DNA of 64,000 nucleotides from an uncultured Candidatus Saccharibacteria bacterium (GTDB lineage: Bacteria > Patescibacteriota > Minisyncoccia > Phycocordibacterales > JACOZG01): NCBI GenBank assembly GCA_964651115.1, contig CAZYXJ010000001.1, positions 286,085 through 350,084 on the forward strand. The letters run 5' to 3'. The translations under genes and the position numbers were made by a program. Of the stretch, positions 8,413-55,315 are shown piece after piece. How positions within the stretch are numbered: the first letter of the stretch is position 1; each line of letters begins with the position of its first letter. Below the pieces are notes generated by a model, which saw only the letters and a program-made list of their open reading frames with translations, ran no database searches and was not told the origin of the DNA.

Positions 8413-8415
8413 AAA

Positions 8416-8994: not shown

Positions 8995-8997
8995 AAG

Positions 8998-10931: not shown

Positions 10932-11001
10932 CGCTCTAGTATATCATGAGACACGCAAAACCCCGCTCTGATTAGAGCGGGGTTTTGGAGTAGAGAAAAA
11001 C

Positions 11002-11442
11002 TTACAAACAGGTCAAATTAGTATCGGCCAAAACCGGGCTCGAAGCTAATTCGCCAGCATATCCAGTTGAATCTACACAATAGAAACCACCACTCCCAAG
11101 AGCAGAGGTTTGAATACCCCACGCGCTCGGCAGAGTGCCACCGGAAGCGTCGTTATCAAAACAGCTTACAGTAACTCCACTTCCCAAAGCTGTACCAGCG
11201 GCAGTAACCAGACGACTCAACCCTCCAGTTGCCGTAGAATCGCACACAGCGTCCACATACGAACCAGATGAATTTGCTCCGAGCTCAGCCTCGGCTCGAG
11301 CGGAAGACAAGCTTGCAACAGCCGAAGCTTCTTTGGCCTTCTGACGAGCACTACCAAGCGAGGTCAAAACAATACCCGAAAGAATACCGATGATCGCAAT
11401 GACCACCAAGAGTTCGATCAAAGTAAAACCTTTACTTTTCAT
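11002..11442 (-). CDS. pilA: type IV major pilin
   Basis: [22 protein letters not shown] prepilin leader. The start is the internal ATG at 11442..11440. The longer ORF-track start at 11637 would overlap pilC. Confidence 0.85.
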
Positions 11443-11505
11443 TATATTAATCGTTATTTTATAAACCTTTGTTCGACCAACTTTGATAAAGTTGTGACGC
11501 CTTTC

Positions 11506-11534
11506 ATTATAATACGGCCGAGGTAGCGCCACAA
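11506..11534 (-). promoter_or_regulatory. candidate sigma70-like promoter for the pilin gene
   Basis: On the minus strand, TTGTGG then a 17-nt spacer then TATAAT, inside the pilC-pilA intergenic region. Confidence 0.3.
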
Positions 11535-11569
11535 TCGGCCTGTGGACAACCGCTCCAATCAAACTCCAC

Positions 11570-12778
11570 TTAGAAGCCCGAAGCGAGATTGTAGATCGGG
11601 ACCAAAACCGAGGTGAGCAGGATGCCCACGCCCACACCCAAAAAGACGATCATCGCTGGTTCGATCAGGTCCACCAGAGTGTCGACGGCGTTATAAACTT
11701 CGCGCTGGTAAAAGCGCGACATCGTATCGAGCACAAAACCCAACTTCCCCGTCTCCTCACCGACGCGGATCATCTGGATCATAATCGTCGGCACCTCAGG
11801 ATGCTTGGTGAGGATGGCCGAAATGGCATTGCCCGACTTAACGCCCTCCGAGGCCTCTCGCAAAATGCTCTGGTAGACGTCATTGCCCACCACGTCACCG
11901 GTGATCTCTAGCGCCCGGACCATCGAGATACCGGCCGTCAACATGGTGGCGAGGTTATCGGCAATGCGCGAGAGATACAACTTTTGGTAAAGCACGCTCA
12001 CATAAGGCACCGTCAACTTAAAGCGGGCCAACTGCATCTGCCCCGACTTGGTGCGGAGCCACCGACCAACGAAAAAGCCCACCACGATTAGCAAAAAGAG
12101 GAGCAAAATACCGTAACTAACAAAGAAGTTAGAGATGGCAATAATGATCTTGGTGTAAATGGGGATCTCTTGCCCCGTCTCGAGCAAAATCGCCGAGAGT
12201 TTAGGGATCACATAGACGAGCATCAAAATCATCACCACCAAAAAGGAAAAGATGATGAAGGCGGGGTAGATCAGGGCGTTGCGGGCCTTAGAGACCAGCG
12301 CGTGCGAACGTTCGAGATAAGCCGCCAGATAAGAAAAGACTTCGGAGAGCTTGCCCGACTCCTCGCCGGCCTTAACCATATTGACGTAAAAGTCAGAAAA
12401 GACCTCCGGATGCTTGCCGAGCGCCTGCGAGATAAGGACGCCGGAGTTAAGATCGTCCGACACCGCCGTTAGCACCAAGCGGAGATGAGGCGTCTCAGCC
12501 TCTGAGGCCAAGAGGCGAAAGGTGGAGAGCGCCGAGACCTTGGCCTCAAACAGCGTCGAAATTTGCCGCGAGAGAAAGACGATCTCCTTCATCTTAACCC
12601 GACGACCACCGAACGAGAGGAGTGAGTTGAGCCGCCCACGATCCTCGACGGAACGGACATCAATAATCACCAGGCCGCGGCGCTGGAGCGAGCCGATCGC
12701 TAAATCGACGTTGGGCGCGTCAATGGTGCCGTCTTGCGGCTGGCCCTCCTTGGTCGTCGCTTTGTACTTAAAAATCAT
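11570..12778 (-). CDS. pilC: type IV pilus assembly platform protein (GspF/PilC family)
   Basis: 402 aa polytopic membrane protein with a duplicated GspF-type domain. Confidence 0.9.
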
Positions 12779-12787
12779 GGCTGGGAA

Positions 12788-13849
12788 TTATAAAATTCGT
12801 TCGAGCGCCCGGGGATTAAGCGAGAAGTGGTAAGCCACATCGGGAGCAATTTCGCCTCGACGCACCAGGTCCGCCAAGGAATGATTAAGATTAATCATTC
12901 CTTCCTCAATCCCCGTCTCGATCACCACGTCGATCTCGGCCGTGCGGCCCTCACGGATCAGGTTGGCGACGGCGTTATTATTAATCAACAGTTCGTAGGC
13001 CGGAATCAGCCCGCCCGACAATCGCGGAATAAGGCGCTGAGAAAAGATGCCGAGCAAAGAACCGGCCAGCTGGATGCGAATCTGATTTTGCTGAGCGGCC
13101 GGGAAGGAGTCGATAATGCGATCAACGGTTTGCGAGGCGCTGTTGGTGTGGAGCGTCGACAAGATTAGGTGCCCCGTCTCGGCGGCCGTCACCGCGGTGG
13201 AGATCGTCTCGGGACTGCGCATCTCGCCGATCATCGCCACGTTAACGTCTTGGCGGAACATTGAGCGCAAAGCGACTGGGAAGTCGACCGTATCGAAGCG
13301 GACCTCGCGCTGATCAATAATCGACTTATCTCCGGTAAACAAATACTCCACCGGATCCTCAATCGTCACGATGTGCTCGGCCCGATTTTGGTTAATGTGC
13401 TGGATCAATGAGGCGAGAGTCGTTGACTTGCCCTGACCGACCGGCCCAACCACCAAGAAAAATCCCTGCTTGCGCGAAGCAAATTCGAGCAGTTTATCGG
13501 GCAGATTAAGCTCGGCCATCGTCTTGATCTTGTTGGGAATCAATCTAAACGCCGCGCCCACCACTCCGCGCTGGAAAAAGGCGTTACCACGGAAGCGCGT
13601 GCCATCACTCGCCGTAAAAGCAAAATCGAGCTCCTTGGTTTTAAGAAATTCCTCGCGGTTGCCGGGCGTCATCACCTCCGAGATAAGGCCCAGCGTATCT
13701 TCGGCGGTAAGGAGAGGCTTTTTTACAATCGGGATCAAGTCGCCAGACACGCGGATCGTTGGATGACGCCCCACCGTTAAGTGGAGATCGGAGGCCCCCT
13801 CTTTAGAGACGATATAAATCAGGTCATCAAGCTCGGCTCGATAGTTCAT
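12788..13849 (-). CDS. pilT: type IV pilus retraction ATPase
   Basis: Walker A GPVGQGKSTT. Length 353 aa. PilT/GspE fold. Confidence 0.9.
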   Translation of the reverse strand: MNYRAELDDLIYIVSKEGASDLHLTVGRHPTIRVSGDLIPIVKKPLLTAEDTLGLISEVMTPGNREEFLKTKELDFAFTASDGTRFRGNAFFQRGVVGAAFRLIPNKIKTMAELNLPDKLLEFASRKQGFFLVVGPVGQGKSTTLASLIQHINQNRAEHIVTIEDPVEYLFTGDKSIIDQREVRFDTVDFPVALRSMFRQDVNVAMIGEMRSPETISTAVTAAETGHLILSTLHTNSASQTVDRIIDSFPAAQQNQIRIQLAGSLLGIFSQRLIPRLSGGLIPAYELLINNNAVANLIREGRTAEIDVVIETGIEEGMINLNHSLADLVRRGEIAPDVAYHFSLNPRALERIL

Positions 13850-13858
13850 TCTAAAAAA

Positions 13859-14251
13859 TTATTTTTTCTTGCTTTTAACAATGTCCATCACCTTGGCTAC
13901 CACCTCCGAGGGCGTGGCCGAAGCTTTAATAATGTAGCCATCGACGCCCAAACTCGTCCCCTTCTCCACGTCATCCTTTTGACCCAAGTTCGACAAAATA
14001 ATAATGGCGCCATCCTTCTGAACGCCACGCTGTTTTAACTGCTCGATCAACTGGAAACCGTCCATCTTGGGCATCAGCACATCAACCAAATAAATGTCGG
14101 CGCGCAAACCACCATCAATCTTTTCGAGTGCCTCTTGGCCATCGCGGGCCGTCACCACCTCAAAGTTATGTTCACCAAACTTGAGCGAATACATATCCAA
14201 CAGAAACTTGTCGTCATCCGTAATCAAAATTTTGTAGGTAGGTTCTGCCAT
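13859..14251 (-). CDS. single-domain response regulator receiver (CheY-like)
   Basis: 130 aa with receiver signature ILITDDD...DVLMPKMDG...K. It sits between pilB and pilT. Confidence 0.85.
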   Translation of the reverse strand: MAEPTYKILITDDDKFLLDMYSLKFGEHNFEVVTARDGQEALEKIDGGLRADIYLVDVLMPKMDGFQLIEQLKQRGVQKDGAIIILSNLGQKDDVEKGTSLGVDGYIIKASATPSEVVAKVMDIVKSKKK

Positions 14252-14283
14252 AATGCTTTAAGTATATTACTGGCCTTGCCAAA

Positions 14284-15855
14284 TCACAACTTCCCGACCT
14301 CCTCAAGTGGGATAAATCCGCCCAGCGCCTTCTTGAGCGCGTCGTCACGCATCGTGGTGAGACCTTTTTTCTTGGCCTGTTCAGCGAAACGCTCTTCGCT
14401 GGGCGCCTCAAGCAATAACTGCTCAAAATCGCGGTCCATAGGCAACATTTCAAACACCGCCATCCGGCCACGCAAGCCACCTGGGCAAGTTGGCGAGGGT
14501 TTGGGCCGATAAACCTGGCCCGGCAAAGTAAACTGCCCGCGCGCCGACTCGGGCACGTCGGACAAATACTTTTCCACCATCGTTTTTAAGCCGCCCTCCA
14601 AGGGCACTTCCTCCCGCGACTCCTCGCAGAGCGTTGGCAACAGGCGCTGAGCTACCGCCAAAATCAAGGTAGCCGAAATTAAGTAGGGCTCGACGCCCAT
14701 GTCGATCAAACGCGGAATCACGCCAGCCGTATTGTTGGTGTGCAAAGTGGAAAGCACTAAGTGACCAGTGAGCGCCGCCTGAACAGCCAGCTTGGCCGTC
14801 TCAGAATCGCGGATCTCACCAACCATGATGATATCGGGGTCCTGGCGCAAAATACTGCGCAAACCATTGGCAAAGGTGTAATGGATCTCCGGCCGGACTT
14901 GCGACTGGCTAATCCCTTCGATCGAATACTCCACCGGGTCCTCCAAGCTAACGACGTTATTCTTTTCGCGATCAATCTCTTGGAGCAAGGCGTAGAGCGT
15001 CGTCGTCTTACCCGAACCAGTCGGCCCAGTAATTAAGATCATGCCGTAAGGACGAGTGATGGCGCCCAAAAGTAGCTGTTTTTGCTCTTCGGAGAGGGCT
15101 AGATCATTAACGCGCAGACGCGTCCGTTCCGGATCCAAAATACGGATGACCACCTTTTCGCCATAGTAAGTCGGCATCGTGGAAACACGAAAGTCGATTT
15201 TGCGATTATCAATCCGCGCCGAAAAGCGGCCATCCTGGGGCTTGCGCCGCTCATCAAGCTTCATATTAGTAAGAATCTTGATACGCGCCACCACCGCGTC
15301 ATGGACCGAGACGGGCAAGAACAGCGAAGTATAGAGAACGCCGTCAACCCGGAAACGCACCTTAACCTGCTTGTCGGTTGGCTCGATGTGGATATCGGAA
15401 GCGGCCCCAGATGAGGCGTGCTGGAGGATCACCGCCACGATTTTGGTCACCGGCGCGTCCTCAACGATCTGAACCTCGCTGGGACGAGTGGGCTTTTTCT
15501 CCGTGGCAGTCTGCTTTTGCTCCTCGCTCTGGATCTCCAAATCCAAATCAGAGAGCGCCTTAGTCACCTGACTGGTCAAACCCTCATAACCCGTAATCAC
15601 CTGATCGAAATCTTTTTGACTAATGCCAAAAACTTTAAACGGCATCCCCACCTTGGTGGCGATAAACTGGAGCGCGTCGCGAGCCTCGATATTACCCGGA
15701 TCAATCATCCCCACCTCCAGCACGCCGTCACGGATCCTTAGCGGCACAAAATTATAGTACTGCGCCGAAGTCTTCGGGATGTACTTGAGAATATCTTGAG
15801 AAATTTTTTCTCCCGGTTCGATTTGCGCTACCGGAATCTCGGCGTCAGACGGCAT
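14284..15855 (-). CDS. pilB: type IV pilus assembly ATPase (GspE family)
   Basis: Walker A ITGPTGSGKTTTLYA. Length 523 aa. N1/N2 domains present. Confidence 0.9.
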   Translation of the reverse strand: MPSDAEIPVAQIEPGEKISQDILKYIPKTSAQYYNFVPLRIRDGVLEVGMIDPGNIEARDALQFIATKVGMPFKVFGISQKDFDQVITGYEGLTSQVTKALSDLDLEIQSEEQKQTATEKKPTRPSEVQIVEDAPVTKIVAVILQHASSGAASDIHIEPTDKQVKVRFRVDGVLYTSLFLPVSVHDAVVARIKILTNMKLDERRKPQDGRFSARIDNRKIDFRVSTMPTYYGEKVVIRILDPERTRLRVNDLALSEEQKQLLLGAITRPYGMILITGPTGSGKTTTLYALLQEIDREKNNVVSLEDPVEYSIEGISQSQVRPEIHYTFANGLRSILRQDPDIIMVGEIRDSETAKLAVQAALTGHLVLSTLHTNNTAGVIPRLIDMGVEPYLISATLILAVAQRLLPTLCEESREEVPLEGGLKTMVEKYLSDVPESARGQFTLPGQVYRPKPSPTCPGGLRGRMAVFEMLPMDRDFEQLLLEAPSEERFAEQAKKKGLTTMRDDALKKALGGFIPLEEVGKL

Positions 15856-15866
15856 GCGTAAAAAAG

Positions 15867-16310
15867 TTAATTATTGAGAAAATCGAACAGATCCTGCACC
15901 GCACTGCGCGGCGCGGCTGGGGCCGCCGGAGCCGCGGAGCGGCTCCCCGCCGACGAAGTGGCGGCGGCCGGCGAAGAAGTCGCCGGCCGGGCGGCATCCT
16001 TACCAATCGGCGCAAACGGATTAGGCCGACCTGGGGTTTGGGGCTTAAGCTCGGTCGAAAAGTCTTTGAAAGTTCGTAACTGGGGATAAATCTCGCTCTC
16101 CAAACTAATATTCTGCAAACTCAGCAACAGCGAGAGAAATTCGTCCGTCCCACCAGCCGCCGCGGTGCCATCCAAATAACCCACGGCCTCCACGCCCAGC
16201 AAATCCGCCGCCGGCTCTTGCCCACTCCGCCAAGCACGATAACCAAAGAACAAAGCCACGATCACAATGACCAGCAGCAACAATTTTAGCAGTGATGAAG
16301 TGCGTGACAT
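15867..16310 (-). CDS. hypothetical membrane-anchored Ala/Pro/Ser-rich protein, possibly PilP-like
   Basis: Probable start is the internal Met (MSRTSSLLKLLLLVIVIVALFF), with its ATG overlapping the pilO stop. C-terminal low-complexity AAPAAPA tail. Confidence 0.4.
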   Translation of the reverse strand: MSRTSSLLKLLLLVIVIVALFFGYRAWRSGQEPAADLLGVEAVGYLDGTAAAGGTDEFLSLLLSLQNISLESEIYPQLRTFKDFSTELKPQTPGRPNPFAPIGKDAARPATSSPAAATSSAGSRSAAPAAPAAPRSAVQDLFDFLNN

Positions 16311-16311
16311 A

Positions 16312-16854
16312 TTATTTGAGCCAATAGGTTTGAATTTCGACCGTGTAATCGTACACATCCTTCTCAGCCGAACTAAAGCCACTGGCCGTCAAATCAATCA
16401 AACGTAAACTTTGCGCCAGATCGTTGAGAAAGGCCTTAAAATTTTCGTACGAACCGGTCACCGAAAAGCCAAAGGTGACCGATCCATGCTTGTCGCTCCC
16501 CGCGGTGATCACCGACTCCTCAGTTTTGCCCTCCTCGGTCTTGATCTGGATGTTGCGAATATTCATCCCATAGGGCTTAGCGATGTTGTTGATGTCGATA
16601 ATCAAACGGACGTTATCAACGTTATCGGGCAAAAGCTTGTTAAGCCGATTAAGATCGTCTTCGGGAATTGCTCGGAACTCGGCCAAGAGCCGATCCTGTG
16701 CTTCGCGTAACTTTTTCGCATTACCGAGCGCCTGATTGAGCGTTTGCTTTTCCGTCTCGATCAAACGGATGTCGGCAAACAGGGGCTGAGTAAAGCGCAA
16801 GAAACCACCAACGGCGACGAGGATGATAATTAGTGGTCCAAGAAAGCGCAGCAT
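16312..16854 (-). CDS. pilO: type IV pilus assembly protein PilO-like
   Basis: N-terminal TM, then a coiled-coil, then a C-terminal domain. Assigned from its position after the pilM and pilN genes. Confidence 0.65.
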   Translation of the reverse strand: MLRFLGPLIIILVAVGGFLRFTQPLFADIRLIETEKQTLNQALGNAKKLREAQDRLLAEFRAIPEDDLNRLNKLLPDNVDNVRLIIDINNIAKPYGMNIRNIQIKTEEGKTEESVITAGSDKHGSVTFGFSVTGSYENFKAFLNDLAQSLRLIDLTASGFSSAEKDVYDYTVEIQTYWLK

Positions 16855-16856
16855 AA

Positions 16857-17471
16857 TTAAGAAGTTTGATTTTTAATTTGTTTGACCACCGATGGATCAG
16901 GCGTGAGCGTCAGCTTAAAGGTAACCTCTCCCGCGCCATCCAAGTTAAGGTCAGAAAAAATAAAGCTCTGGATCCGCCGCTTCTCGGCTGAAAAAACCTG
17001 CGTCTGTACCGCAATATCTTCGTAACTAGTGGCGGTGCCGGCAATGGTTACGCCCTCGGCCGAATAAGCAAAGGTTTTGTAACTAATCGTGGGCAGAGTG
17101 AGTTCTTCCAGCAAAGAAAAGAGGGGCAAAATCGTCTCGTGATCCACAATCACTCGCTCGGCCACCTCCAACTTAGAGTCAAGGCGCTGTAATTGGGTGA
17201 TGGTGTTCTGATCAATATTTTGGCGCTCCCGTTCGACCGAGGCCTTAAGACCACAACGCAAAACTCCCGTGCCATCCGCGGTACAAGGACGATCAATCTC
17301 GGCGCGCAAAATCCCCCGGTAAGCAAAAGCGCCACCGTAAATAGCGGCCGAGATCAAAAGGACGATCACGGCAATAACTAAAAGCAAGTTAGACGAGGAG
17401 GAACGCGGCCGCTCATTCTTGGTGAGCGCCGCCTTGGGAATGAACGAAGTTGGTGATGAACTCGGAGGCAT
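16857..17471 (-). CDS. pilN: type IV pilus assembly protein PilN-like
   Basis: N-terminal TM protein. Assigned from its position directly after pilM. Confidence 0.6.
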   Translation of the reverse strand: MPPSSSPTSFIPKAALTKNERPRSSSSNLLLVIAVIVLLISAAIYGGAFAYRGILRAEIDRPCTADGTGVLRCGLKASVERERQNIDQNTITQLQRLDSKLEVAERVIVDHETILPLFSLLEELTLPTISYKTFAYSAEGVTIAGTATSYEDIAVQTQVFSAEKRRIQSFIFSDLNLDGAGEVTFKLTLTPDPSVVKQIKNQTS

Positions 17472-17496
17472 ATCCGTCTAATAATAATACCACAAG

Positions 17497-18606
17497 TTAG
17501 TCTAAAGTTTGCAAATGTCGAAGCGCTAAACCAATCGCCACGGCAAAACCCGGACCCGCTTCGCTTAAAATTGGGGTTAAAAATGCGGGCGCGGCCACCA
17601 TCTCGAATGGTTTGCCGAGCGTCACCGGAATTTCGAAATTTTTTCCGGCCACTTCGACTAAGCCACGCAAGAGCGCGCCACCACCGATCAACACGATCTT
17701 ATTAACCGACCGACGATTCTTTTCTTGATACCGGCTAATCACCTTACTGACTTCCGAAAAAATAAATTCAACAATACTATTAACCGTCACCGACACATTG
17801 CGTCCATCATAATGCTCCACCAAGCCCACGGTGCGCTTAATCTCTTCGGCCTTAGCAAAATCCACCCCCAAGGAGCGCGATAAAGCTAGGGTAATGTCTT
17901 GCGAGCCCTTGGGGATGGTGTGCGAAGAACGGACAATCCCGTAATCCACAATCGCCATCTTGGTATTGGAGGCGCCGATGTCGAGCATGACAGTCGCATT
18001 CATCTCCCCGCCAAAGACAGAACGGATGGCACTAAAGGTCTCAATCTCAAAAAACGCTGGCTGGATGCCCATCTGTTTAGCAAATTCCTGATGCTGACTA
18101 ATAATGGTGTTGTGAATGGCCACCACTAAAACCTGGAGCTTGTTCTCGCTCGCCTCGGATCCACCGCCCTCACTCGGCAACACCCACCAATCCAGCGCCA
18201 CTTCGGAAATCGGTACGGGAATATATTTTCGCGCCTCAATCGGAATCACCTTAGGCAACAGATCACGACTCACCTTGGGAATCTCGATAATCGTCACCAA
18301 ACTTGAGCCCAGCGGGATCGAAAGCGATCCGAGTGTGGTAGTAACATTGGCCTCCTTAAATAGATCGCGCGTCACTTCTACCATCTTTTCGGGCGGCACA
18401 ATCGCGACCTGACCGACCGCCAAACTCCGATAAGGACCAGTGGCAATCTCGCCATAGGTTTCTAAAATCGCTCGGCCCTTTTCGCGTCGCAATTGCACGA
18501 CCTTGATTGAAGAGGTGCCCACGTCAATACCAATCACGCTGTTGGCCCGACGTTGGAAAAGATTAAAGGATTTAAAATTTAAAAGTTTTTCAAATGGACT
18601 CGCCAT
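17497..18606 (-). CDS. pilM: type IV pilus assembly protein PilM (actin-like ATPase fold)
   Basis: GIDVGTSSIKVV phosphate-1 motif. Length 369 aa. Confidence 0.85.
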   Translation of the reverse strand: MASPFEKLLNFKSFNLFQRRANSVIGIDVGTSSIKVVQLRREKGRAILETYGEIATGPYRSLAVGQVAIVPPEKMVEVTRDLFKEANVTTTLGSLSIPLGSSLVTIIEIPKVSRDLLPKVIPIEARKYIPVPISEVALDWWVLPSEGGGSEASENKLQVLVVAIHNTIISQHQEFAKQMGIQPAFFEIETFSAIRSVFGGEMNATVMLDIGASNTKMAIVDYGIVRSSHTIPKGSQDITLALSRSLGVDFAKAEEIKRTVGLVEHYDGRNVSVTVNSIVEFIFSEVSKVISRYQEKNRRSVNKIVLIGGGALLRGLVEVAGKNFEIPVTLGKPFEMVAAPAFLTPILSEAGPGFAVAIGLALRHLQTLD

Positions 18607-19762: not shown

Positions 19763-21286
19763 TCATTTATCTTCTAGAGAAAAAGTTGCAGGATCTTTCC
19801 CCTCGACAATATTGCCACTTAAATAAACATGGTTCTTGTCTTTTGAGTATCCGTATTCGCCCAAATCAACGAATGTCTCTGGGTCGGCACCTTCGATTAT
19901 CCTATTTCCGTAATACACATGACTCTTGTCCTTCGCATAGTAGCTGTTGATCGGGTGGAACGTGGCATGGTCAGCAGTGGCTATGATCGGACCTTCATCG
20001 AAAGAACCTTCAATGTAATAGACGTTGTTCTTATCTTTCTGATAGGCACCGATATCATCGACAATATTTTTGAGCGTATCAGGATCGCCAGTCGGGATGT
20101 ATTTGTAAGTGTAGTAAAGCTTGTCGCCATCCCTACCATATTCACTCGACATCACCATAAATGTTGCGGGATTAGCTCCTTCAACAAGATCCCCACGCCA
20201 GTAGACATGATTCGCGTCTTTCATCCATAATCCCCCGTGCTCCGAATCTTCGACACCCACAAGAGTAGCCACGTCCACGCCTTCGTAGCCCTCGTCAGGG
20301 TAGATCCAGTTAAAAACCCGACTCTTATCCTTGCCGAGGCCCGCGCTGAAGTAAACATATGTCTCGGGGTCTGCACCCTCAATCTTGTAGCTTCCAGAAA
20401 GACCGAGACCGCCAAGGTACCCATCTAAGTACACGCCGTTCTTGTCCTTCACGAAGTTTCCTTCCTCGTCAATAGCCATGAAGCTCGCCACGTCATACTG
20501 GACATCGTGCGGTGCGCAGTCGTACTTGTAGACGTAACGAGAATCCTTTGCCCATATGCTGTTGAATATGACGAAGGAAGAGAGATCAATGTCGGGACGA
20601 GGCGTATCTCCGCAGTACAGAACATCGTCTCGAAACACGAAACCATAATGCATGTTTCGAGCGGGGCTCTTCCAACTGCTGAACTTGCCGTCTGAGTAAT
20701 GCAAAGTCAGGTAGCCAGTTTCCGCAGGAAACTCTGTGCGAACGCGAGCCTCAGTCTTTCCGTCCTCGTCAAAATCCTTGAAGACGACGCCCCATTCACC
20801 CTCTCTGAGAAAGGAAGGAATTACGCCAAGGTCTTTGTGGTACACCTGTTCGTAGGAAGACCCACCATACACAAAGAGTTCAGTCCTCGTTGATTTGTCG
20901 CTTGGAATTACATCCTGCTTGAGGACAATGATTTTGCCCGGGGCAAATTTTGAATTGCTCCTGACAAGGATGTCATGCCCTCTTCCATTGGAACCGTAGA
21001 GGAGTATAGCGTTTGCATTGTCGCCGCAACTCTCGATTATCTGAGAAAGAAAAGTGTTCAATTGCTCGACCGGAGCAGGATCCTTGATGTCACCTTCTCC
21101 CTTAGAGCACATGATGTGAAGTGTATTTGCTGGAACATCAATGTTGCCGAGACGACCTTCGACATTGAATTCGGATTGGTTTGACCACGAGATGTATGCC
21201 CATAAGGCATATGCCCCGAGCAGTAGAATAATCACGCCAAAAAGTACGGCCAGTGATTTTAAGAAAATCTTAAATGGTTTGCTCAT
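19763..21286 (-). CDS. membrane-anchored secreted protein with C-terminal DKNYY-family repeats
   Basis: N-terminal TM. The C-terminal half has tandem KDKNHVYY...GADPETF repeats matching the DKNYY family pattern. GC looks lower than the neighbouring sequence. Confidence 0.7.
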   Translation of the reverse strand: MSKPFKIFLKSLAVLFGVIILLLGAYALWAYISWSNQSEFNVEGRLGNIDVPANTLHIMCSKGEGDIKDPAPVEQLNTFLSQIIESCGDNANAILLYGSNGRGHDILVRSNSKFAPGKIIVLKQDVIPSDKSTRTELFVYGGSSYEQVYHKDLGVIPSFLREGEWGVVFKDFDEDGKTEARVRTEFPAETGYLTLHYSDGKFSSWKSPARNMHYGFVFRDDVLYCGDTPRPDIDLSSFVIFNSIWAKDSRYVYKYDCAPHDVQYDVASFMAIDEEGNFVKDKNGVYLDGYLGGLGLSGSYKIEGADPETYVYFSAGLGKDKSRVFNWIYPDEGYEGVDVATLVGVEDSEHGGLWMKDANHVYWRGDLVEGANPATFMVMSSEYGRDGDKLYYTYKYIPTGDPDTLKNIVDDIGAYQKDKNNVYYIEGSFDEGPIIATADHATFHPINSYYAKDKSHVYYGNRIIEGADPETFVDLGEYGYSKDKNHVYLSGNIVEGKDPATFSLEDK

Positions 21287-26319: not shown

Positions 26320-26393
26320 GCGCGTGTAGCTCAGTTGGTTAGAGCACCGAGCTTATACCTCGGCGGTCCTTGGTTCGACTCCAAGCACGCGCA
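26320..26393 (+). tRNA. tRNA-Ile, anticodon TAT (UAU)
   Basis: Acceptor gcgcgtg/cacgcgc. Anticodon stem ccgag/ctcgg with loop cttatac. T-arm cttgg-ttcgact-ccaag. Discriminator A. No CCA. Confidence 0.7.
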
Positions 26394-26404
26394 CTACTTG
26401 GCTT

Positions 26405-34082: not shown

Positions 34083-34133
34083 AATTTGCGTCTGGCTTTT
34101 TAGTGCTTGCACTGCGAAGCCTTGGCGAAGCAG

Positions 34134-34502
34134 TGGAGATGGCGGGAATCGAACCCGCGTCCGAATGAGTCGGTCAGTTGGAATCTACAAGTTTAGTTAA
34201 CTTTAAATTTTAAACTGTGACGATAAAAAATTAACCAAACTCGTCACAATCGAGCTCATAATTTTAGGTCTCCAACCCGAGCCGAGTTGGTTTCCGATCC
34301 TGCAAGGCAACACGGAACGGATCGAGCACAGGCACTCGGATCCGCACCGCTACATTACGCTAAAGCGAACGTAGAAGTGTAGTATGGAGATACTACACCC
34401 GTATCAGATGCGTTTGCACGTATCTGGGTGCTTGTTTTTACGAGGTCAAGCGCCTCGACCTGCTTCCTCCTGCTTCGTCAATCGTCGAAGCCGATCATCC
34501 CC
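34134..34502 (-). ncRNA. ssrA: tmRNA
   Basis: On the minus strand the 5-prime end reads GGGGATGATCGGCTTCGACG and the 3-prime end reads GGACGCGGGTTCGATTCCCGCCATCTCCACCA. An internal tag reading frame ends in ...TFALA-stop. Confidence 0.85.
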
Positions 34503-39288: not shown

Positions 39289-39897
39289 TTAATTCGACGA
39301 AGAACTAAACTTAAAGGTAGACAAAATATCCATGAGCGCTTGGCGATACTGATCAATCTCCGCCTGAGAAGGAATCTTGCCGTATCCGAAATTACTTGAA
39401 ACGGTTAGAGTCTTACCTTTCACCTGGGCCCGAGCATACTCACTCCACGTCGAAGCATCGGCGTCTAAAAAGCCCGAAAGCGCGTACCCCTGACCATCAA
39501 TCGTGGCATTAATAATGATCGACTTAGAAGATACTCCCGTCCCCGTAAAGGTACAGAAATTTCCTTGGCTGTCTCCATTACCATAAGAAATCACTCCTTT
39601 CGGAAAACTAATACTAAGGCAGTCACCCACCTTGGTGATAACAGCCTCATCGGGATATCTAAAACTAAGATTATTCGCCAGATCATTGTAGGTTGACCAC
39701 CCGTTTACCGTCGACGTAAGGACAGGGGCATTTTGCCGAGCCAAAAGCTGGATCAACTGTTGCTGAAGCGCAACAACTTGACTCAACAATTGCTGAATCA
39801 GAGCACTATCCGTCACTGCCGCCCGACTGGTCAACGGAACAACCACCGCGGTTAAGACTAAAGTGCAGGCACAGAACTTAAAGATTAGTTTTTTCAT
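39289..39897 (-). CDS. hypothetical secreted protein
   Basis: Signal peptide, then a Q-rich helical segment DSALIQQLLSQVVALQQQLIQLL. Confidence 0.5.
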   Translation of the reverse strand: MKKLIFKFCACTLVLTAVVVPLTSRAAVTDSALIQQLLSQVVALQQQLIQLLARQNAPVLTSTVNGWSTYNDLANNLSFRYPDEAVITKVGDCLSISFPKGVISYGNGDSQGNFCTFTGTGVSSKSIIINATIDGQGYALSGFLDADASTWSEYARAQVKGKTLTVSSNFGYGKIPSQAEIDQYRQALMDILSTFKFSSSSN

Positions 39898-49323: not shown

Positions 49324-49665
49324 TTATTTCTTAGCTTCGGGGGTAGCGCTCGCGGCCTTAGCAGCAGCAATCTCGCTCTCGCGCTTCTTCTGCTCTAACT
49401 CCTTTTGCATCTTACCACCATGCTTAATAAACTTACGCGTCAGAGAAAACTCACCCAACTTGTGGCCGACCATATCTTCGGTCACCAAAACCTCCACGTG
49501 GTCACGACCATTGTGGACGCCGAACTTGAAGCCGACCATTTCTGGGCTGATCGAGGAGCGACGAGCCCAAGTTTTGATCACATTAGACTCGCCCGGCTTC
49601 TTACCGGCGATTTTCTTCAATAATTTGGGGTCCACATAGGGCCCCTTGGCGAGCGATCGTGACAT
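49324..49665 (-). CDS. rpsS: 30S ribosomal protein S19 with Lys/Glu-rich C-terminal extension
   Basis: S19 core [11 protein letters not shown]... plus a charged tail of about 20 aa. Confidence 0.9.
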
Positions 49666-49714
49666 AGATAAAGGAAAACACTGTCATCCACCATGGCGGA
49701 CTAGACAGTGTTCC

Positions 49715-49742
49715 ATATTAACAGAACTCTTTTCGATGTCAA
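49715..49742 (-). promoter_or_regulatory. candidate sigma70-like promoter driving rpsS and the downstream operon
   Basis: On the minus strand, TTGACA then a 16-nt spacer then TAATAT, directly upstream of rpsS. It is followed by a perfect 9-bp inverted repeat (49677..49712) and a T-rich tract. Confidence 0.45.
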
Positions 49743-49761
49743 CTAAGCCCTGTTTTTGGTC

Positions 49762-52173
49762 CTAACGAAAGAGACTGCGCAGTGACTCGGCGACGCCCGA
49801 TAGCTGCTTCCAGGCTCCCGAACTAGTTGGGCGAGCCACCGTAACTGGGCCATCCGAGAAGTCGATCGAACCGGAGGTGCACTGGCCGCCACCCGGGGTC
49901 GTTAGGTCACACACAGCGGCCAAATAGAAGGTGCCGGTAGCTTGACCCTCAGGAACAGTCCAAGTAGCCACACCAGTATTGGGGTGCTCGGGGATCAGCC
50001 AAGCCACTGGAGCGGTCTTGTTTTCGTTATAGAGGGCGATCGAAACGGAACTATTGGCCGGGAAATTGGCGCTCGTCCACTTAATCTCATAAGTCTGACC
50101 AATGGTAAAGGTTTGGGAGGCACGTGGCGAAGTGAGGCTAATGGTTGGTTCGGTCGAAGCGGGGCACTGGGGCAACGTCACACTCGCCACGGGACTAGTA
50201 CCATAAGCGGCCGAACTAACTGAATACTCAATCGTCTTACCGCCCCAGTTGGAATACTGACGAGTGGCGGTATAATTTTTACCAGCCGTCTGGATCCGCT
50301 CGCCGCCCGTAAAGTCAAAATAGCCCGTTGAGCCGCCAATCACCTTCTCTTGAAGGCGATACTCACCAGAAACGGCTGGTTCCCATTTAATCGCCACATT
50401 CTGGTAGCGACTACCGCTCTGATCCACGCACGAGGTCGTGATTTTAGGAGCCGGAACGCCAGCTACTGGCGCCGGGGCGCTACCCACCGTCACTGTAATC
50501 TGGTCAACATCTGTCCCCCCGACTCCGACGCAACTAACCTCAAAAACCTTAGTTCCGCTGCGACTGTAAGAATAGGATCTCTCACCGGAAACGCCAACCG
50601 AACTATCGTTTTCCGGATCGCTCAAAGTACAACTCGTCGCATTAGTGCTCGTCCAGCCGATGGTAAATTTAGTGTTTTGGGCCACAACCTGGTTCTGCGG
50701 ACTGGCATTGGCCGTGACGTTCACCGTCGGAGCCGCCGCTGGATTTACAATCTTGATCGGCTTATCGGAAAAGTCCCAGCGATCACCGGGACAGGTTCCG
50801 GCCACATTTACGAGGTCACAGAACACCCCTACATAGTACTCGCCCGTGGGCTGACCAGCCGGAATTGTCCACCAATAAGCGCCAGTGTTGGCTAATTCTG
50901 GCTTGATGTAAAGATTCTCACCAGAAGTGGTGTTGGTCTTCTTGAGCGTGAGGGTAATTGAGCCGTTGGCGGGAATGTTCTCCGCCGCCCACTTAATTAC
51001 ATAAGTCTTGCCGATTTCCAAGGTTTCGCCATTGTTGGGCCAGAGAATGGTCTCTTTGGAAAGAGAATCGCTCGCTGAGCCCCTCACTTTAACTTTAACC
51101 TTATTGCTAATACCTTGGGTAAACACCATATATACACTATAAGTTTTCCCTGGAATCAGGTCAGCAGGAGCAATGGCGCGAAGCAGAGTACTCCCCCATT
51201 GCGTTACCACTGCCCGGTACTGACCATCATTTTCGAAATAAACGATGGGATCTTTTGTCGGTCCAGTGCCCAACAAATTCAAGCCCTCAATAGCAAACTC
51301 AGCACCAGCATCAACAACAAAGTCATCATTGGCCTTAGAGCTAATCCTGGTTATTGCCGTAAGAGCCGTCGCGCAGGCGGGCGTCTTGAAGCTCTTAGCG
51401 CGAGAAAATTGCCCACCGGTAGAAACACGGACTAGGTAAGTGGTTTCCGGCTCAAGAGCCAAGGTGCCAATCTTATCCCAACGGGTAAAGCCTCGGAAAT
51501 CAATCGAGTTCTCTTCAGCCGAACGATTCCAGGTCTTAGTATTGTTGGCAAACGAGTCAGAACCAGGGCGAGAAATATCAACCCAGAAATATCCGTCCCC
51601 GGAAGCCCGACCACTCCAAGAAATTGAGCCGTCCAACCCCTCGTCAGTACAAGCGACGGAGACACTCGGAGTAGTGGGAACGTTAACCCGCTCGTCCACA
51701 ATCTTAAAGGTGCCATTGCTCCAATCATAGGAGTTAGCCGAACAGCGTTCGTCTACGCCCTTTTTGTCGCAAAAAATACCCAAGGTGTAAGTCCCCGGTT
51801 CAATATCTTCACTAATCGTCCAATCCCAGTTGCCAGTATTGTCTAATTCGGTTTTCACATCACTAATCTCCCCGCGGGCATCCTTAAGTGTTAGCGTCAC
51901 CACGGCGCCAGCGGGGAAATTTACGCCACTCCACACCACCGGGTAAGTTCCTTTAGTCACCAAAACTTCGCCTCCATTGGGATAGAGGAGTTGAACGCTA
52001 GGACCAGCCGCTGGCTGACTCAAGATCAGCGCGAGTTGCTCCTGGAGCTTCACAATCATCGCCTGCAGTTGAGCAATGAGAGCACTGTCGTTATTTGTCT
52101 GGGCCTGTACCAATCCCGCCCCACCCAAAACCAGAACTGCGAGCACGATCATCGCCGTCAAAAATTTCTTCAT
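49762..52173 (-). CDS. large secreted surface protein with three Cys-pair repeats of about 100 aa
   Basis: Signal peptide, a Q-rich helix, then three copies of the pattern P-NGGE-...-GxTYxIxW-...-NTG-xWxWTIP-...-GxYxLG-FCD-...-C-...-DFSD-IV. Confidence 0.7.
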   Translation of the reverse strand: MKKFLTAMIVLAVLVLGGAGLVQAQTNNDSALIAQLQAMIVKLQEQLALILSQPAAGPSVQLLYPNGGEVLVTKGTYPVVWSGVNFPAGAVVTLTLKDARGEISDVKTELDNTGNWDWTISEDIEPGTYTLGIFCDKKGVDERCSANSYDWSNGTFKIVDERVNVPTTPSVSVACTDEGLDGSISWSGRASGDGYFWVDISRPGSDSFANNTKTWNRSAEENSIDFRGFTRWDKIGTLALEPETTYLVRVSTGGQFSRAKSFKTPACATALTAITRISSKANDDFVVDAGAEFAIEGLNLLGTGPTKDPIVYFENDGQYRAVVTQWGSTLLRAIAPADLIPGKTYSVYMVFTQGISNKVKVKVRGSASDSLSKETILWPNNGETLEIGKTYVIKWAAENIPANGSITLTLKKTNTTSGENLYIKPELANTGAYWWTIPAGQPTGEYYVGVFCDLVNVAGTCPGDRWDFSDKPIKIVNPAAAPTVNVTANASPQNQVVAQNTKFTIGWTSTNATSCTLSDPENDSSVGVSGERSYSYSRSGTKVFEVSCVGVGGTDVDQITVTVGSAPAPVAGVPAPKITTSCVDQSGSRYQNVAIKWEPAVSGEYRLQEKVIGGSTGYFDFTGGERIQTAGKNYTATRQYSNWGGKTIEYSVSSAAYGTSPVASVTLPQCPASTEPTISLTSPRASQTFTIGQTYEIKWTSANFPANSSVSIALYNENKTAPVAWLIPEHPNTGVATWTVPEGQATGTFYLAAVCDLTTPGGGQCTSGSIDFSDGPVTVARPTSSGAWKQLSGVAESLRSLFR

Positions 52174-52252
52174 AAATAAAATTAAAGCTAAAAAACTTAC
52201 GCTCTTCTTAAGCTCTAGTATAGCGCTATTTTATCTGCTACGCTAAATCGGC

Positions 52253-53056
52253 TTGTCCACAATCATGCCCTCACCGAAAAAAATTTGGCTGATTTTACTG
52301 GGCCTAGTTGGCCTCTACCTTGCCGCCTCGGCCTTGGTCTTTTTTGGTGTTAAGTACGGCTGGACCAACACGGCCGGCCTGGCTGATCCAGGCCGGCCGA
52401 CGGCGGCGGCCAACCCCGTTTGGGCCAACAACGAAGAGTGGTCAACCCTGGCCGCCGCGCTAATTAAAGATCGCTCAGTCATTGAGGCGGCCGCCGCCCA
52501 AGTCAATCTGCGTCCCCGCCTGCTAGTGGCCCTCATCGTTCCCGAACAGCTCCGCCTCTTCCACACCGAGCGAGCGGTTTTTAAACAAATCTTCGCGCCG
52601 CTAAAAATTCTCGGCAACCAGAGCCAGTTCTCCTGGGGCGTGGCCGGCTTTAAGCAAGCCACGGCCGAGCAAGTTGAGGTCCACCTCACCAATCAACAAT
52701 CCCCCTTCTATTTGGGGCCGGAATTTGAAAATTTTCTAACCTTTACCACCACCAACCCTGATCAAGAACGCTTTGAACGGCTCGTTAACGAGCGTAATCA
52801 CTTCTACTCCTATCTCTACGCGGGATTATTTACCCGTCAGATTATGGCTCAGTGGGAACGAGCGGGCTGGCCCATCAGCGATCGACCAGAAATCTTAGGC
52901 ACGCTGTTTAACATCGGTTTTGATAATTCTCACCCCAAAGCCAACCCCGTCATGGGTGGGGCGGCGATTGAGATTGCCGGCACGACCTACTCCTTTGGCC
53001 GGTTAACTTACGAATTTTACTACTCCGAACTCCTGCAAGAAATTTTTCCGCGCTAA
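52253..53056 (+). CDS. hypothetical N-terminally membrane-anchored protein (267 aa)
   Basis: TM helix IWLILLGLVGLYLAASALVFF. No recognised motif. It lies inside the insertion on the opposite strand. Confidence 0.5.
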   Translation: MSTIMPSPKKIWLILLGLVGLYLAASALVFFGVKYGWTNTAGLADPGRPTAAANPVWANNEEWSTLAAALIKDRSVIEAAAAQVNLRPRLLVALIVPEQLRLFHTERAVFKQIFAPLKILGNQSQFSWGVAGFKQATAEQVEVHLTNQQSPFYLGPEFENFLTFTTTNPDQERFERLVNERNHFYSYLYAGLFTRQIMAQWERAGWPISDRPEILGTLFNIGFDNSHPKANPVMGGAAIEIAGTTYSFGRLTYEFYYSELLQEIFPR

Positions 53057-53673
53057 CTCTGAGGGCAGATTGACTTTTGCCCCAATTGCGACCGAGCCAA
53101 CAGAGCATCACCAAGATTTAATTGACCATTAGCCGTGCCATCATACTTGGCGTTACTGCCTGCGGGGACCAAAGCAATCTTACCTTTAATGGCTAGCGCG
53201 TCGGTCATATCGACGGCCCCGTCACTATTTACGTCGCCCAAGAGATTACGAAAATAAACGTTGCGATCAGTCCCAGAAGCAGTCCCACTAATCTTGCCCG
53301 ATAACGTCACCTCATAACAACCGCCATTAGGCAAAGCACCGAGCAACAGATCCAAGCTGAGGCCATCTGGCGCCAGGGAGACCCCTACCGGCGAACTGGT
53401 CGTGCCTGTTAAGACGTGCCGGACCACAATCGGACTGCCCGTTAACTCAACCACGTCATTAAAAACTGCCCTTAACTTGGTCACTCCCCCCAACCGTGGC
53501 TCGATGGTAATCGCAGTCGTCGTCCCCGGAGCCGCCGACTTATTAAGCGTCAGCGACTGCTCACCCGCCGCACCCTGAGTCTTCACCGACGTCCAGGTTA
53601 CCGAAGTCGCCTCCCCAAAAGCCACATTCGCCCAAAGCAACAAACTTAACACCGCCAAATACTTCATAAGCAA
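53053..53673 (-). CDS. secreted protein with C-terminal dockerin-like repeats
   Basis: Signal peptide. C-terminal GDVNSDGAVDMTDALAIKGKI and DGTANGQLNLGDALLARSQL resemble the duplicated calcium-binding dockerin segment. Confidence 0.55.
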   Translation of the reverse strand: MLMKYLAVLSLLLWANVAFGEATSVTWTSVKTQGAAGEQSLTLNKSAAPGTTTAITIEPRLGGVTKLRAVFNDVVELTGSPIVVRHVLTGTTSSPVGVSLAPDGLSLDLLLGALPNGGCYEVTLSGKISGTASGTDRNVYFRNLLGDVNSDGAVDMTDALAIKGKIALVPAGSNAKYDGTANGQLNLGDALLARSQLGQKSICPQS

Positions 53674-53762
53674 AAACTAATTATTAAAGCGAACACTTCC
53701 ATAGTAGCACAAACAACCCCCGCCACTGGCGGGGGTTGTTGATAACCGAACTGAACCTAGAG

Positions 53763-54380
53763 TTAGCGAGTCGTGACTGGCTTCTCTGAGCAAGAAGCGC
53801 TGTGGCCCATGTTAAAGCGGGCAAACAGAGCGTCACCCAAATTTACTTCGCCAGTGCGATTAACGTCATAGATAGCCAAGTCCGTCGTGGTACCGATAAC
53901 GTTCTTCAGCTTAAGAACGTCAGCCCCAGAAACTAGGCCATCACCCGTAACGTCACCAGCCAAAACCTTAACGTAAACCGCCTTGTCGCCCGTCTCGGCC
54001 AAGCCATCAAAGCGCTTATTAACGTCAATTTTGTAACAAGCACCGTCAGGCAAGTTGGCATACTCAAGCTCCAAGCGCTTACCGTCGTCGCTTAAGAAGG
54101 TCGAAGTTGGACGATGAAGGATCCCGGTACTCAAGCTACGAGCATGAGTATAAACTGGGCGCTTTTGGACTGGTAAGTCAAAGTTGATCACCACCTTCTG
54201 CAAACCACCCTGCCGGGTCTCCGTCGCAGTCGCCAGCGGGCTAAGAGCCAATGATTGCTCGCCTACCACCGCGTGACTGCGGACGCTCTCCCAGCTAACT
54301 ACCGTTGCGCCAGTTGAAGCGTAGGCCAGCGTTAGGCCAAAGGCCAAAGCTGCCCCCGCGCCAATAAAGATTTTGTTCAT
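53763..54380 (-). CDS. secreted protein with C-terminal dockerin-like repeats (paralogue of 53053..53673)
   Basis: Signal peptide. C-terminal GDVTGDGLVSGADVLKLKNVI and DVNRTGEVNLGDALFARFNM. The N-terminal domain aligns with that of its neighbour. Confidence 0.55.
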   Translation of the reverse strand: MNKIFIGAGAALAFGLTLAYASTGATVVSWESVRSHAVVGEQSLALSPLATATETRQGGLQKVVINFDLPVQKRPVYTHARSLSTGILHRPTSTFLSDDGKRLELEYANLPDGACYKIDVNKRFDGLAETGDKAVYVKVLAGDVTGDGLVSGADVLKLKNVIGTTTDLAIYDVNRTGEVNLGDALFARFNMGHSASCSEKPVTTR

Positions 54381-54463
54381 GAACCGTAAAAGTTAGTCTA
54401 ATCAATAAAACCACGAAAACTCTTCCATCCTACGTAAAAAGACGGAAAAGTCAACCCCGAGTA

Positions 54464-55315
54464 TTAGCGACGACGATCAATCTTCTTGCGTCGACTAAGC
54501 ACCGCGCCGCGAGAATATTTCTTACGTCGGCGAGTCTTAACGCCGAAAGCGAGCTTGCCAGTTGGCGTCTTAGGGCCGCGGCGCAAACCAATGGGCTGGC
54601 GACCCTCACCACCACCGTGAGGATGGTCTACCGGGTTCATCGCGCTACCACGAACCGTGGGGCGCACGCCCAACCAACGCGAACGACCGGCCTTACCACG
54701 ACTGACCAACTTGTGTTCATCGTTAGAAACGGCGCCAACCGTGGCCCAAGACTTTTCGTTAATCTTGCGCACCTCGGTGGAAGGCATCTTAACCGTGCTG
54801 TAACCGGCGTCATTGCCCAAAATCTGAGCGAAACTGCCCGCCGAGCGCACCAGTCGAGCCCCGCCAGCTGGTTGAACTTCGATATTGTAAATAAAAGTAC
54901 CTACCGGGATCTTGTAAAGAGGCAGGCGATTACCGGGTTTAGCATCAGCTTCAACCGAAGCAACAAACTGGTCCCCGACCTTAACCCCACCAGGCAACAA
55001 GACATAACGGCGAGTACCGTCAGCATAAACAACCAAACCAATAAAACCGGAACGGTTAGGATCGTACTCGATCGTCTCCACGCGAGCGGGAATATTTTTC
55101 TTGTCGTAAGAAAATTCGATTTCGCGATAGAGGCGCTTGTGGCCACCACCTTTATGACGAGTAGTGATCCGGCCATCAGCGTTGCGACCAAAGGCGCGCT
55201 TGCGACCATAAGTCAAAGACTTATGTGGCTCCGAGGCCGACAAGGTCTTGCGATAATCAATCGAAATCAGCTCGCGTCGACCGGGACTAGTAGGTTTGTA
55301 TTTTTTCGTGGCCAT
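54464..55315 (-). CDS. rplB: 50S ribosomal protein L2
   Basis: 283 aa with ...HPHGGGEGR... the conserved L2 motif. Confidence 0.95.
   Translation of the reverse strand: MATKKYKPTSPGRRELISIDYRKTLSASEPHKSLTYGRKRAFGRNADGRITTRHKGGGHKRLYREIEFSYDKKNIPARVETIEYDPNRSGFIGLVVYADGTRRYVLLPGGVKVGDQFVASVEADAKPGNRLPLYKIPVGTFIYNIEVQPAGGARLVRSAGSFAQILGNDAGYSTVKMPSTEVRKINEKSWATVGAVSNDEHKLVSRGKAGRSRWLGVRPTVRGSAMNPVDHPHGGGEGRQPIGLRRGPKTPTGKLAFGVKTRRRKKYSRGAVLSRRKKIDRRR

Follow-up and report, generated by a model that had tools for sequence, protein, structure and literature searches.

K803, the gene considered here, is a complete ATG-initiated open reading frame (ORF) encoding 803 amino acids (aa) on the minus strand of a 64,000-nucleotide stretch of Patescibacteria DNA (positions 286,085 to 350,084 of contig CAZYXJ010000001.1, assembly GCA_964651115.1; hereafter the window, to which coordinates refer unless another locus is named). 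The gene (49762..52173, stop codon included) lies within a 4.8-kb insert (49666–54463) between the ribosomal protein genes rplB and rpsS, the order being rplB, dockerin protein 1, dockerin protein 2, an opposite-strand ORF of 267 aa, K803 and rpsS. A protein identical to K803 is present in NCBI (P0001). K803 contains three homologous copies of a Kre9/KNH-like beta-sandwich domain, termed K1, K2 and K3, which are interleaved with four other beta-rich domains, and the gene has diverged far more deeply than the chromosome that surrounds it.

Domain organisation and the three K repeats

The order of parts is signal peptide, helix, K1-A1-T-K2-I-A2-K3, helix, and the boundaries are as follows.

Residues 1–24, 52102..52173 (−): Sec-type signal peptide MKKFLTAMIVLAVLVLGGAGLVQA, read from the sequence and likely cut after VQA
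Residues 27–53, 52015..52095 (−): N-terminal amphipathic helix NNDSALIAQLQAMIVKLQEQLALILSQ, helix 29–51 in a low-confidence model
Residues 58–162, 51688..52002 (−): repeat K1, Kre9_KNH-like, Cys135/Cys144, from pairwise alignment and tblastn
Residues 163–270, 51364..51687 (−): domain A1, beta-rich and weakly FN3-like, Cys175 and Cys267 close to its two ends
Residues 271–371, 51061..51363 (−): domain T, beta-rich, no Cys, strands in the low-confidence model, absent from the orthologue
Residues 372–478, 50740..51060 (−): repeat K2, Kre9_KNH-like, Cys452/Cys461, PF10342 27.8 bits, AlphaFold2 model
Residues 479–566, 50476..50739 (−): domain I, a two-Cys immunoglobulin (Ig)-like module (TIGWTSTNATSC...EVSCVGVGG), absent from the orthologue
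Residues 567–675, 50149..50475 (−): domain A2, beta-rich, Cys582 and Cys670 close to its two ends
Residues 676–783, 49825..50148 (−): repeat K3, Kre9_KNH-like, Cys755/Cys765, PF10342 33.2 bits
Residues 784–803, 49765..49824 (−): C-terminal amphipathic helix of 17–20 residues SSGAWKQLSGVAESLRSLFR, helix 787–802 in the model

A BLASTP comparison of whole K803 with itself gave only the diagonal, and for this reason the modules were cut out and compared by Smith-Waterman alignment and tblastn. The three K modules are 39–41% identical in pairs, with alignment scores of 188, 126 and 212 against a mean of about 29 +/- 5 for shuffled sequences (z = 31, 20 and 31), and none of 500 shuffles attained the observed scores. 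In a tblastn search of the whole window K2 recovered K3 (E 7.7e-22, 40.6% identity) and K1 (E 1.4e-18, 40.2% identity), and beyond these two no match below E 0.4. Each repeat measures about 105 aa and contains a C-x8/9-C pair, both cysteines being among the 20 columns that are invariant in the three-way alignment. An initial annotation, made from the DNA alone, had described three repeats of about 100 aa with a shared motif and a conserved Cys pair, and had staked this on the modules aligning to one another above chance, which they do by a wide margin. Its motif is accurate bar small deviations (P-RASQ for P-NGGE in repeat 3, WTIS for WTIP in repeat 1), and the pair recurs as C135/C144, C452/C461 and C755/C765. 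The remaining domains A1, T, I and A2 are not repeats of one another or of the K module (z <= 3.6). A1 and A2 were considered as a second repeat family and rejected at the sequence level (z 1.7), only their Cys-capped layout being common to both.

Whole K803 matches the Pfam family PF10342, the Kre9/KNH-like N-terminal Ig-like domain, in three stretches (E 3.8e-15, 56.8 bits). Taken singly, K2 (27.8 bits) and K3 (33.2 bits) lie above the curated gathering threshold (24.6 bits), while K1 (17.5 bits) falls below it despite its homology to the other two. The matches end at position 72–79 of the 94-position profile and thus short of its full length; the last third of the K domain is a divergent two-Cys loop region that lies outside the family model, with the C-x8/9-C loop and a D-x-S-D strand in place of the family tail. 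A weaker match of K803 is to PF14610 (Psg1). AlphaFold2, applied to K2 with a 60-sequence alignment of family copies, gave an all-beta sandwich of eight to nine strands at high confidence (predicted local distance difference test, pLDDT, 95.1; predicted template modelling score, pTM, 0.87), in which a long strand (73–83 in domain numbering) terminates in Cys452 and the loop from there to the last strands contains Cys461. Foldseek comparison of this model with the PDB returned only weak and generic Ig/FN3-like matches, to modules of extracellular proteins that act on carbohydrates or lie at the surface (query-normalised TM 0.38–0.56, identity 8–19%), the better ones being AA11 lytic polysaccharide monooxygenase (LPMO) cores, a porphyran-binding carbohydrate-binding module (CBM), the CbhA FN3-like module, Rib, CARDB and the HPI surface layer (S-layer). 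PDB sequence searches with the repeat profile, whole K803 and the 267-aa ORF found nothing significant, no solved Kre9 structure surfaced for comparison in the PDB sequence or Foldseek searches, and literature searches on Kre9-like domains in bacteria found nothing specific. At the level of the domain family, the Kre9/KNH-type Ig-like beta-sandwich proposed in the initial annotation is upheld by the PF10342 match and the K2 model.

The fungal members of PF10342, Kre9, Knh1 and their relatives, are secreted or glycosylphosphatidylinositol (GPI)-anchored and share with K803 the profile match, the secreted context and an all-beta Ig-like fold of about 100 aa. They differ in that the fungal proteins have one N-terminal copy, followed by a Ser/Thr-rich O-glycosylated region, whereas K803 has three copies within a bacterial seven-domain protein and no Ser/Thr-rich tract; K803, moreover, comes from a Patescibacteria bacterium rather than from a beta-1,6-glucan-containing fungus. 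The three-repeat alignment retrieved no homologues in a word-indexed search, and an exhaustive hidden Markov model (HMM) search was needed. Run with the repeat profile against 1.84 billion representative proteins, this gave 8,432 matches at E <= 1e-3 and 311 at E <= 1e-30, so the K module is common. Many of the matches are giant proteins with 10–49 copies (47 in P0008, 49 in P0024; E down to 1e-147) that have in common with K803 the motif SPNGGE-W-G-ITW ... NTG-Y-WTIP ... Y-I-V ... D-SD-F-I, and some also contain protease-like regions. In the giant proteins, where the module is likely to form the repeated stalk of exported proteins, the copies follow one another in unbroken tandem and the Cys pair is very rare; in K803 they are single copies interleaved with other domains. 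P0031, P0044, P0093 and P0101 end in segments that resemble type IX secretion sorting domains (by eye only), whereas K803 has terminal helices.

Cysteines, remaining domains and terminal helices

The Cys pair was surveyed in 1,687 non-self K-domain copies from the 154 best non-self family proteins, aligned to the repeat profile. Cysteine is absent from both positions in 1,620 copies. The first Cys is found in 39 copies, 15 of which also have the downstream Cys, as compared with 28 of the other 1,648; the association is strong (odds ratio 36, Fisher p 1e-15, or 5e-12 without the orthologue's three copies), with the proviso that the copies are not phylogenetically independent. Such coupling across homologues is the pattern expected from a disulfide pair, and it lends support to the disulfide that the initial annotation had suggested, the bond itself being deduced from the pairing. 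The two-Cys tail is a rare subtype, amounting to about 1% of K-domain copies. K803 as a whole has 12 cysteines, exactly two in each of six domains and none in domain T, with A1 and A2 each carrying one near either domain end. This distribution fits six intradomain disulfides and an extracytoplasmic location, and six such bonds would probably stiffen the chain.

Among the remaining domains, A1 is predicted to be all-beta and matches PF16656 (Pur_ac_phosph_N) below the cut-off (E 6e-4, 20.7 bits). Domain T has no Pfam match at E <= 10 and an IPT/TIG-like look by eye only, and neither domain I nor A2 has a Pfam match. Domain I contains the central SCTLS...VSCVG segment (C515, C548), read as Ig-like from the outset, and by homology it belongs to a recurrent 'ISW-STNATSC...SC-G-GG' Ig-like module that is found in P0007 (score 135, z 13.9) and in a 1,007-aa protein of locus L030 (score 111, z 8.8). 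The full-length AlphaFold2 model, built on a two-sequence alignment, is all-beta between two terminal helices and was used for secondary structure only (pLDDT 48); its best Foldseek matches are multi-Ig/FN3 ectodomains and alpha-2-macroglobulins, not scaffoldins.

The terminal helices link K803 to a wider set of proteins. The Q/L-rich helix that follows the signal peptide (DSALIAQLQAMIVKLQEQL...) recurs in a secreted ORF of the window (39289–39897, minus strand), and among the best 154 non-self proteins of the family about 10, unrelated and multi-domain, have an N-terminal helix of the K803 type and, at the exact C-terminus, a short amphipathic helix as well; a small C-terminal-helix HMM matches the exact C-terminus of the same proteins that bear the N-terminal helix. 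The helices were recognised by small HMMs or by eye, and as the HMMs were built from eye-picked examples these counts are indicative only. Exported proteins of apparent Patescibacteria type with both helices are P0025, P0066, P0067, P0105, P0107, P0111, P0138, P0150 and P0154, and a 703-aa protein of L087 has the N-terminal helix, which on the L087 contig (helix-bearing stretch 190–3300) is also seen on an M23-peptidase-like protein. Their layout is that of K803, namely signal peptide, Q/L-rich helix, mixed beta-sandwich domains including the two-Cys K subtype (present in P0025, P0066, P0067, P0105 and P0111) and C-terminal helix. They differ from it in that their K domains are 25–40% identical at best and that most have, behind the N-terminal helix, an additional peptidoglycan-binding-like 'WCHxFN' module which K803 lacks. 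The terminal-helix feature is not annotated in Pfam or NCBIfam and literature searches found nothing specific on it; as far as these three sources show, none of the helix-bearing exported proteins has been described.

The rplB–rpsS site and the divergence of K803

The genes and signals around K803 are listed below.

54464..55315 (−): rplB (L2), upstream border of the insert
53763..54380 (−): dockerin protein 1, 205 aa, PF00404 E 7.9e-7, 29.6 bits
53712..53740 (−): terminator-like stem-loop of 13 bp with a 3-nt loop, then UUUGUGCU, immediately following dockerin gene 1 and before dockerin gene 2
53053..53673 (−): dockerin protein 2, 206 aa, with signal peptide, beta domain and type I dockerin, PF00404 E 5e-6, 27.1 bits
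52253..53056 (+): opposite-strand ORF, 267 aa (263 aa from ATG 52265), with an N-terminal membrane anchor, divergent from K803
49715..49742 (−): promoter-like TTGACA-16-TAATAT with TG, 10 of 12 positions matching and a match to the consensus only, between the K803 stop codon and rpsS
49324..49665 (−): rpsS (S19), downstream border of the insert

Both dockerin proteins score above the PF00404 cut-off of 22.9 bits, and K803 thus stands, between rplB and rpsS, in the ribosomal operon insert and beside the dockerin proteins that the initial annotation had named. The two dockerin proteins are paralogues of 35% identity and contain a single small beta domain apiece; when dockerin protein 1 was used as query, homologues outside its own cluster did not turn up. 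The 267-aa ORF, which has no Pfam, NCBIfam or PDB match, is convergent with dockerin gene 2, the stop codons of the two overlapping by 4 bp. The K803-dockerin cassette is also present in one related assembly, GCA_964444555.1 (locus L001), where the 267-aa ORF is 92.5% identical (ratio of non-synonymous to synonymous divergence, dN/dS, 0.135). Homologue searches found nothing further that resembles whole K803. A metagenome scan returned only distant K-domain relatives (28–37% identity), none of them shown to lie within a ribosomal operon; L087, the only one inspected, is outside one.

The L2 protein of the window is at most 65% identical to that of any species representative, the nearest belonging to Kaiserbacteria, Zambryskiibacteria, Paceibacterota and other Patescibacteria. 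In the loci that the L2 search retrieved (L002–L081), the L2 and S19 genes are 4–198 bp apart in non-Patescibacteria and distant Patescibacteria. Of the ten nearest relatives whose contig carries both genes, nine have a spacing of 546–1,120 bp and the tenth one of 192 bp. One other genome reaches 4,067 bp, and values of 4.1–4.8 kb are seen across L030, L001 and the window. The inserted genes vary by genome and include MazE/MazF (L009), a prokaryotic diacylglycerol kinase (L013), DUF5674 (L005) and several unassigned ORFs; the L030 insert holds an IS200-like transposase and the 1,007-aa protein mentioned above, a CARDB/PKD surface protein with the 'STNATSC' module. From these comparisons the rplB–rpsS junction has the look of a hot spot for insertions that is peculiar to this clade and interrupts the S10 operon. 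Because the cargo is unrelated from genome to genome, the position in this operon is a property of the site and not a sign of a shared ribosomal programme. In the window the insert has no flanking direct or inverted repeats and no shift in GC content, and thus bears no mark of recent mobile-element insertion.

The position had also been taken to imply production at a high level, which the local signals do not bear out. The stem-loop after dockerin gene 1 is GC-rich with perfect 14-nt arms (centroid -25 kcal/mol, z -4.1) and is probably an intrinsic terminator that ends an rpsJ-rplB-dockerin-1 transcript; an opposite-strand gene lies between the dockerin genes and K803, and a promoter-like site precedes rpsS. 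Codon adaptation to the ribosomal-protein set is ordinary, at 0.686 for K803, a mean of 0.735 for the ribosomal genes and 0.66 +/- 0.04 for 18 other genes. On these grounds, which are sequence signals only, the argument for high expression from position falls.

The comparison with L001 bears more directly on the history of the gene. The orthologue (P0002) is a protein of 620 aa in the same position (9713–11575 of that locus), about 93% identical by homologue search, which lacks exactly domains T and I; the junctions are clean and leave K1-A1-K2-A2-K3, and the C-terminal helix is 100% conserved. Nei-Gojobori estimates put the synonymous divergence (dS) of K803 at 1.23 overall and, by domain, at 1.85 for K1, 2.07 for A1, 1.57 for K2, 0.72 for A2 and 1.09 for K3, as against 0.09–0.49 in 25 flanking genes that include the two dockerin genes, the 267-aa ORF, secY, adk, map and ndk. 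The dN/dS ratio is 0.07 overall, 0.03–0.06 in the five shared beta domains and 0.16 in the N-terminal 57 residues, and in the same five domains third-codon-position identity is 47–65% at an amino-acid identity of 84–95%. In 150-nt windows nucleotide identity is 87–99% outside K803 and 66–90% (mostly 67–85%) inside it; the change falls at the start and stop codons of the gene, and the K803-rpsS spacer is 98% identical in L001. The gene-specific dS together with the low dN/dS indicates that the K803 alleles are several times older than the surrounding chromosome and that purifying selection acts on the protein. Most simply this would reflect replacement of the allele by recombination with a more distant relative, or the long maintenance of divergent alleles, both of which are familiar for exposed surface components. 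A target of a diversity-generating retroelement was rejected, since such targets show localised, adenine-directed and mostly non-synonymous variation in a short region, whereas the changes in K803 are overwhelmingly synonymous and gene-wide, with dN/dS of 0.03–0.16 per domain.

Some features elsewhere in the window were recorded alongside. A type IV pilus cluster (about 7855–18606, minus strand) contains several prepilin-like ORFs with the G-FTLIE N-terminal methylation motif, confirmed by PF07963 for 11002–11442, and by eye also prepilin peptidase and PilB/PilT/PilC/PilM-like genes. An ORF at 19763–21286 (minus strand) encodes a 507-aa membrane-anchored protein with four repeats of the DKNYY family (PF13644, E 4e-61), a family of unknown function. 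ARAGORN identified a tRNA-Ile with anticodon TAT (UAU) at 26320–26394 (plus strand); this anticodon is the less common bacterial means of reading AUA, the usual route being a lysidine-modified CAU. A transfer-messenger RNA (tmRNA) gene with the tag peptide ANASDTGVVSPYYTSTFALA is found at 34131–34502 (minus strand).

Role of K803 and competing explanations

K803 matches no enzymatic family in Pfam or NCBIfam, and it is most likely a non-enzymatic protein on or beyond the cell surface of a member of the Patescibacteria (candidate phyla radiation, CPR; Paceibacteria-like). On balance we favour, with moderate confidence, the view that K803 is exported as a string of beta-sandwich domains, probably stabilised by disulfides, and serves as a stalk or adhesin-like protein at the surface. 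The signal peptide, as read from the sequence, has a KK n-region, a hydrophobic core and an A-x-A-like site and no Cys, so K803 would not be a lipoprotein. As in fibrillar adhesins, a predicted export signal is combined with repeated Ig-like domains, three of the seven beta-rich domains being repeats. K803 would leave the cell by the Sec pathway, its 24-residue signal peptide would be removed, and the remainder would form an extended chain of seven independent beta-sandwich domains (K1-A1-T-K2-I-A2-K3). The K domains may be spacers of the stalk and possibly also make contact with glycans; the first of these roles fits the repetition of the module up to about 49 times per protein in other bacteria. 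Within each K domain the putative disulfide would tie off a short loop that joins the last two strands. Anchoring or self-assembly would likely fall to the terminal amphipathic helices, no other part of K803 being a candidate for it. The protein probably faces some agent of selection, such as host cells, phages or grazers. The context is in line with this reading: two secreted dockerin proteins are encoded next door, and in a cultivated Saccharibacterium growth as an epibiont depends on an envelope protein with a dockerin domain (PMC10633639). The initial annotation had called it a surface protein outright; the signal peptide, the fold and the Cys pairing all point there, and from these we infer the location.

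Several observations weigh against this interpretation. The whole architecture is found in only two or three assemblies, too few for a comparison to bear on function. K803 has no LPXTG motif, lipobox Cys, C-terminal membrane helix, SLH domain or type IX sorting domain by sequence, Pfam and NCBIfam, and it matches no known adhesive or ligand-binding tip family in Pfam or NCBIfam, with A1, T, I and A2 not assigned to any family. A confident model was obtained for only one of the seven domains (K2), the full-length pLDDT being 48. Many Patescibacteria inhabit anoxic water, where disulfide formation is not assured. Lastly, the high dS of K803 could stem in part from strain-chimeric metagenome assembly.

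A more ambitious form of the stalk or adhesin interpretation, possible but doubtful, would assign K803 to an undescribed class of Patescibacteria surface proteins defined by the helix pair. The two helices would act as a sorting, anchoring or head-to-tail assembly signal, and the beta-sandwich modules between them, the disulfide-looped Kre9-like subtype included, would be swappable. The gene would occupy the recombination-prone rplB–rpsS site and be exchanged there as an allele cassette, consistent with a dS four times that of the flanks and the gain and loss of whole domains, and K803 might work with the two adjacent dockerin proteins in host-cell attachment.

Of the alternatives proper, the one that survives best is that K803 is the subunit of an S-layer or sheath, self-assembling through its terminal helices and abundant by virtue of its place among ribosomal genes; we regard it as unlikely. 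The paired helices could mediate head-to-tail or lateral assembly, the HPI S-layer is among the weak fold matches of K2, no terminator-like site separates K803 from rpsS, and S-layer genes are often deeply divergent in alleles between strains, as K803 is. However, neither SLH nor any other S-layer family matches in Pfam and NCBIfam, and the gain from position is hard to uphold for a gene that is insulated from the upstream ribosomal genes, has ordinary codon adaptation (0.686 versus 0.735 ribosomal) and occupies a site where relatives hold unrelated cargo (MazEF, diacylglycerol kinase, transposase). Whole domains are moreover dispensable, which would be unusual for a lattice subunit.

More improbable still is a cohesin-like scaffold that forms a small surface complex with the two dockerin proteins, an extension of the initial annotation's suggestion that the repeats might have a cohesin-like fold and bind the dockerins next door. 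Like cellulosomal scaffoldins, K803 is a multi-domain secreted beta-sandwich protein encoded beside dockerin proteins, and the association of the dockerin genes with K803 is preserved in both genomes in which they occur. No recognisable cohesin was found in eight other uncharacterised ORFs of the window that were scanned, and A1, T, I and A2, which have neither a confident model nor a family, leave room for a divergent cohesin. Against this, the cohesin family PF00963 gave no match at E <= 1 for whole K803 or at E <= 10 for A1, T, I and A2, and no cohesin or scaffoldin appeared among the top 50 Foldseek matches of K2 or of the low-confidence full-length model, so that the suggestion finds no support in the individual repeat. 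Unlike the scaffoldin systems, the dockerin proteins here are of about 205 aa and have no attached glycoside hydrolases; the genes do not form one operon, given the hairpin after dockerin gene 1 and the opposite-strand gene in between; and dockerin-like modules without cellulosomes are common, often with no cognate cohesin nearby.

It is equally improbable that the K domains bind a wall polysaccharide of the bacterium or its host and aid attachment or remodelling in the manner of fungal Kre9/Knh1, as the PF10342 membership, the weaker PF14610 match and the porphyran-binding CBM and LPMO cores among the nearest solved folds might suggest, given that the fold matches are weak and generic (TM <= 0.56), that the Pfam match is limited to profile positions 1–79 of 94 with no Ser/Thr-rich region, and that the bacterial module occurs mostly in long tandem arrays typical of spacers. 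Fungi require the cell-surface proteins Kre9 and Knh1 to assemble beta-1,6-glucan. What the Kre9 domain does at the molecular level is unknown (PMC13604645), so that the analogy says little about mechanism.

Secreted proteins of several Ig-like domains are common, and the repeat family has thousands of bacterial members; as a probable surface stalk or adhesin-like protein K803 is by itself of little weight. The variable rplB–rpsS site matters for those who use ribosomal-operon synteny or concatenated ribosomal proteins from such genomes. The deep allelic divergence and the gain and loss of domains, set against a conserved ribosomal background, make K803 a candidate for an exposed and selected surface component in a poorly understood, probably episymbiotic lineage of Patescibacteria. 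The putatively disulfide-looped Kre9-like subtype travels with the paired terminal helices, a combination by which exported proteins of this phylum might be recognised.

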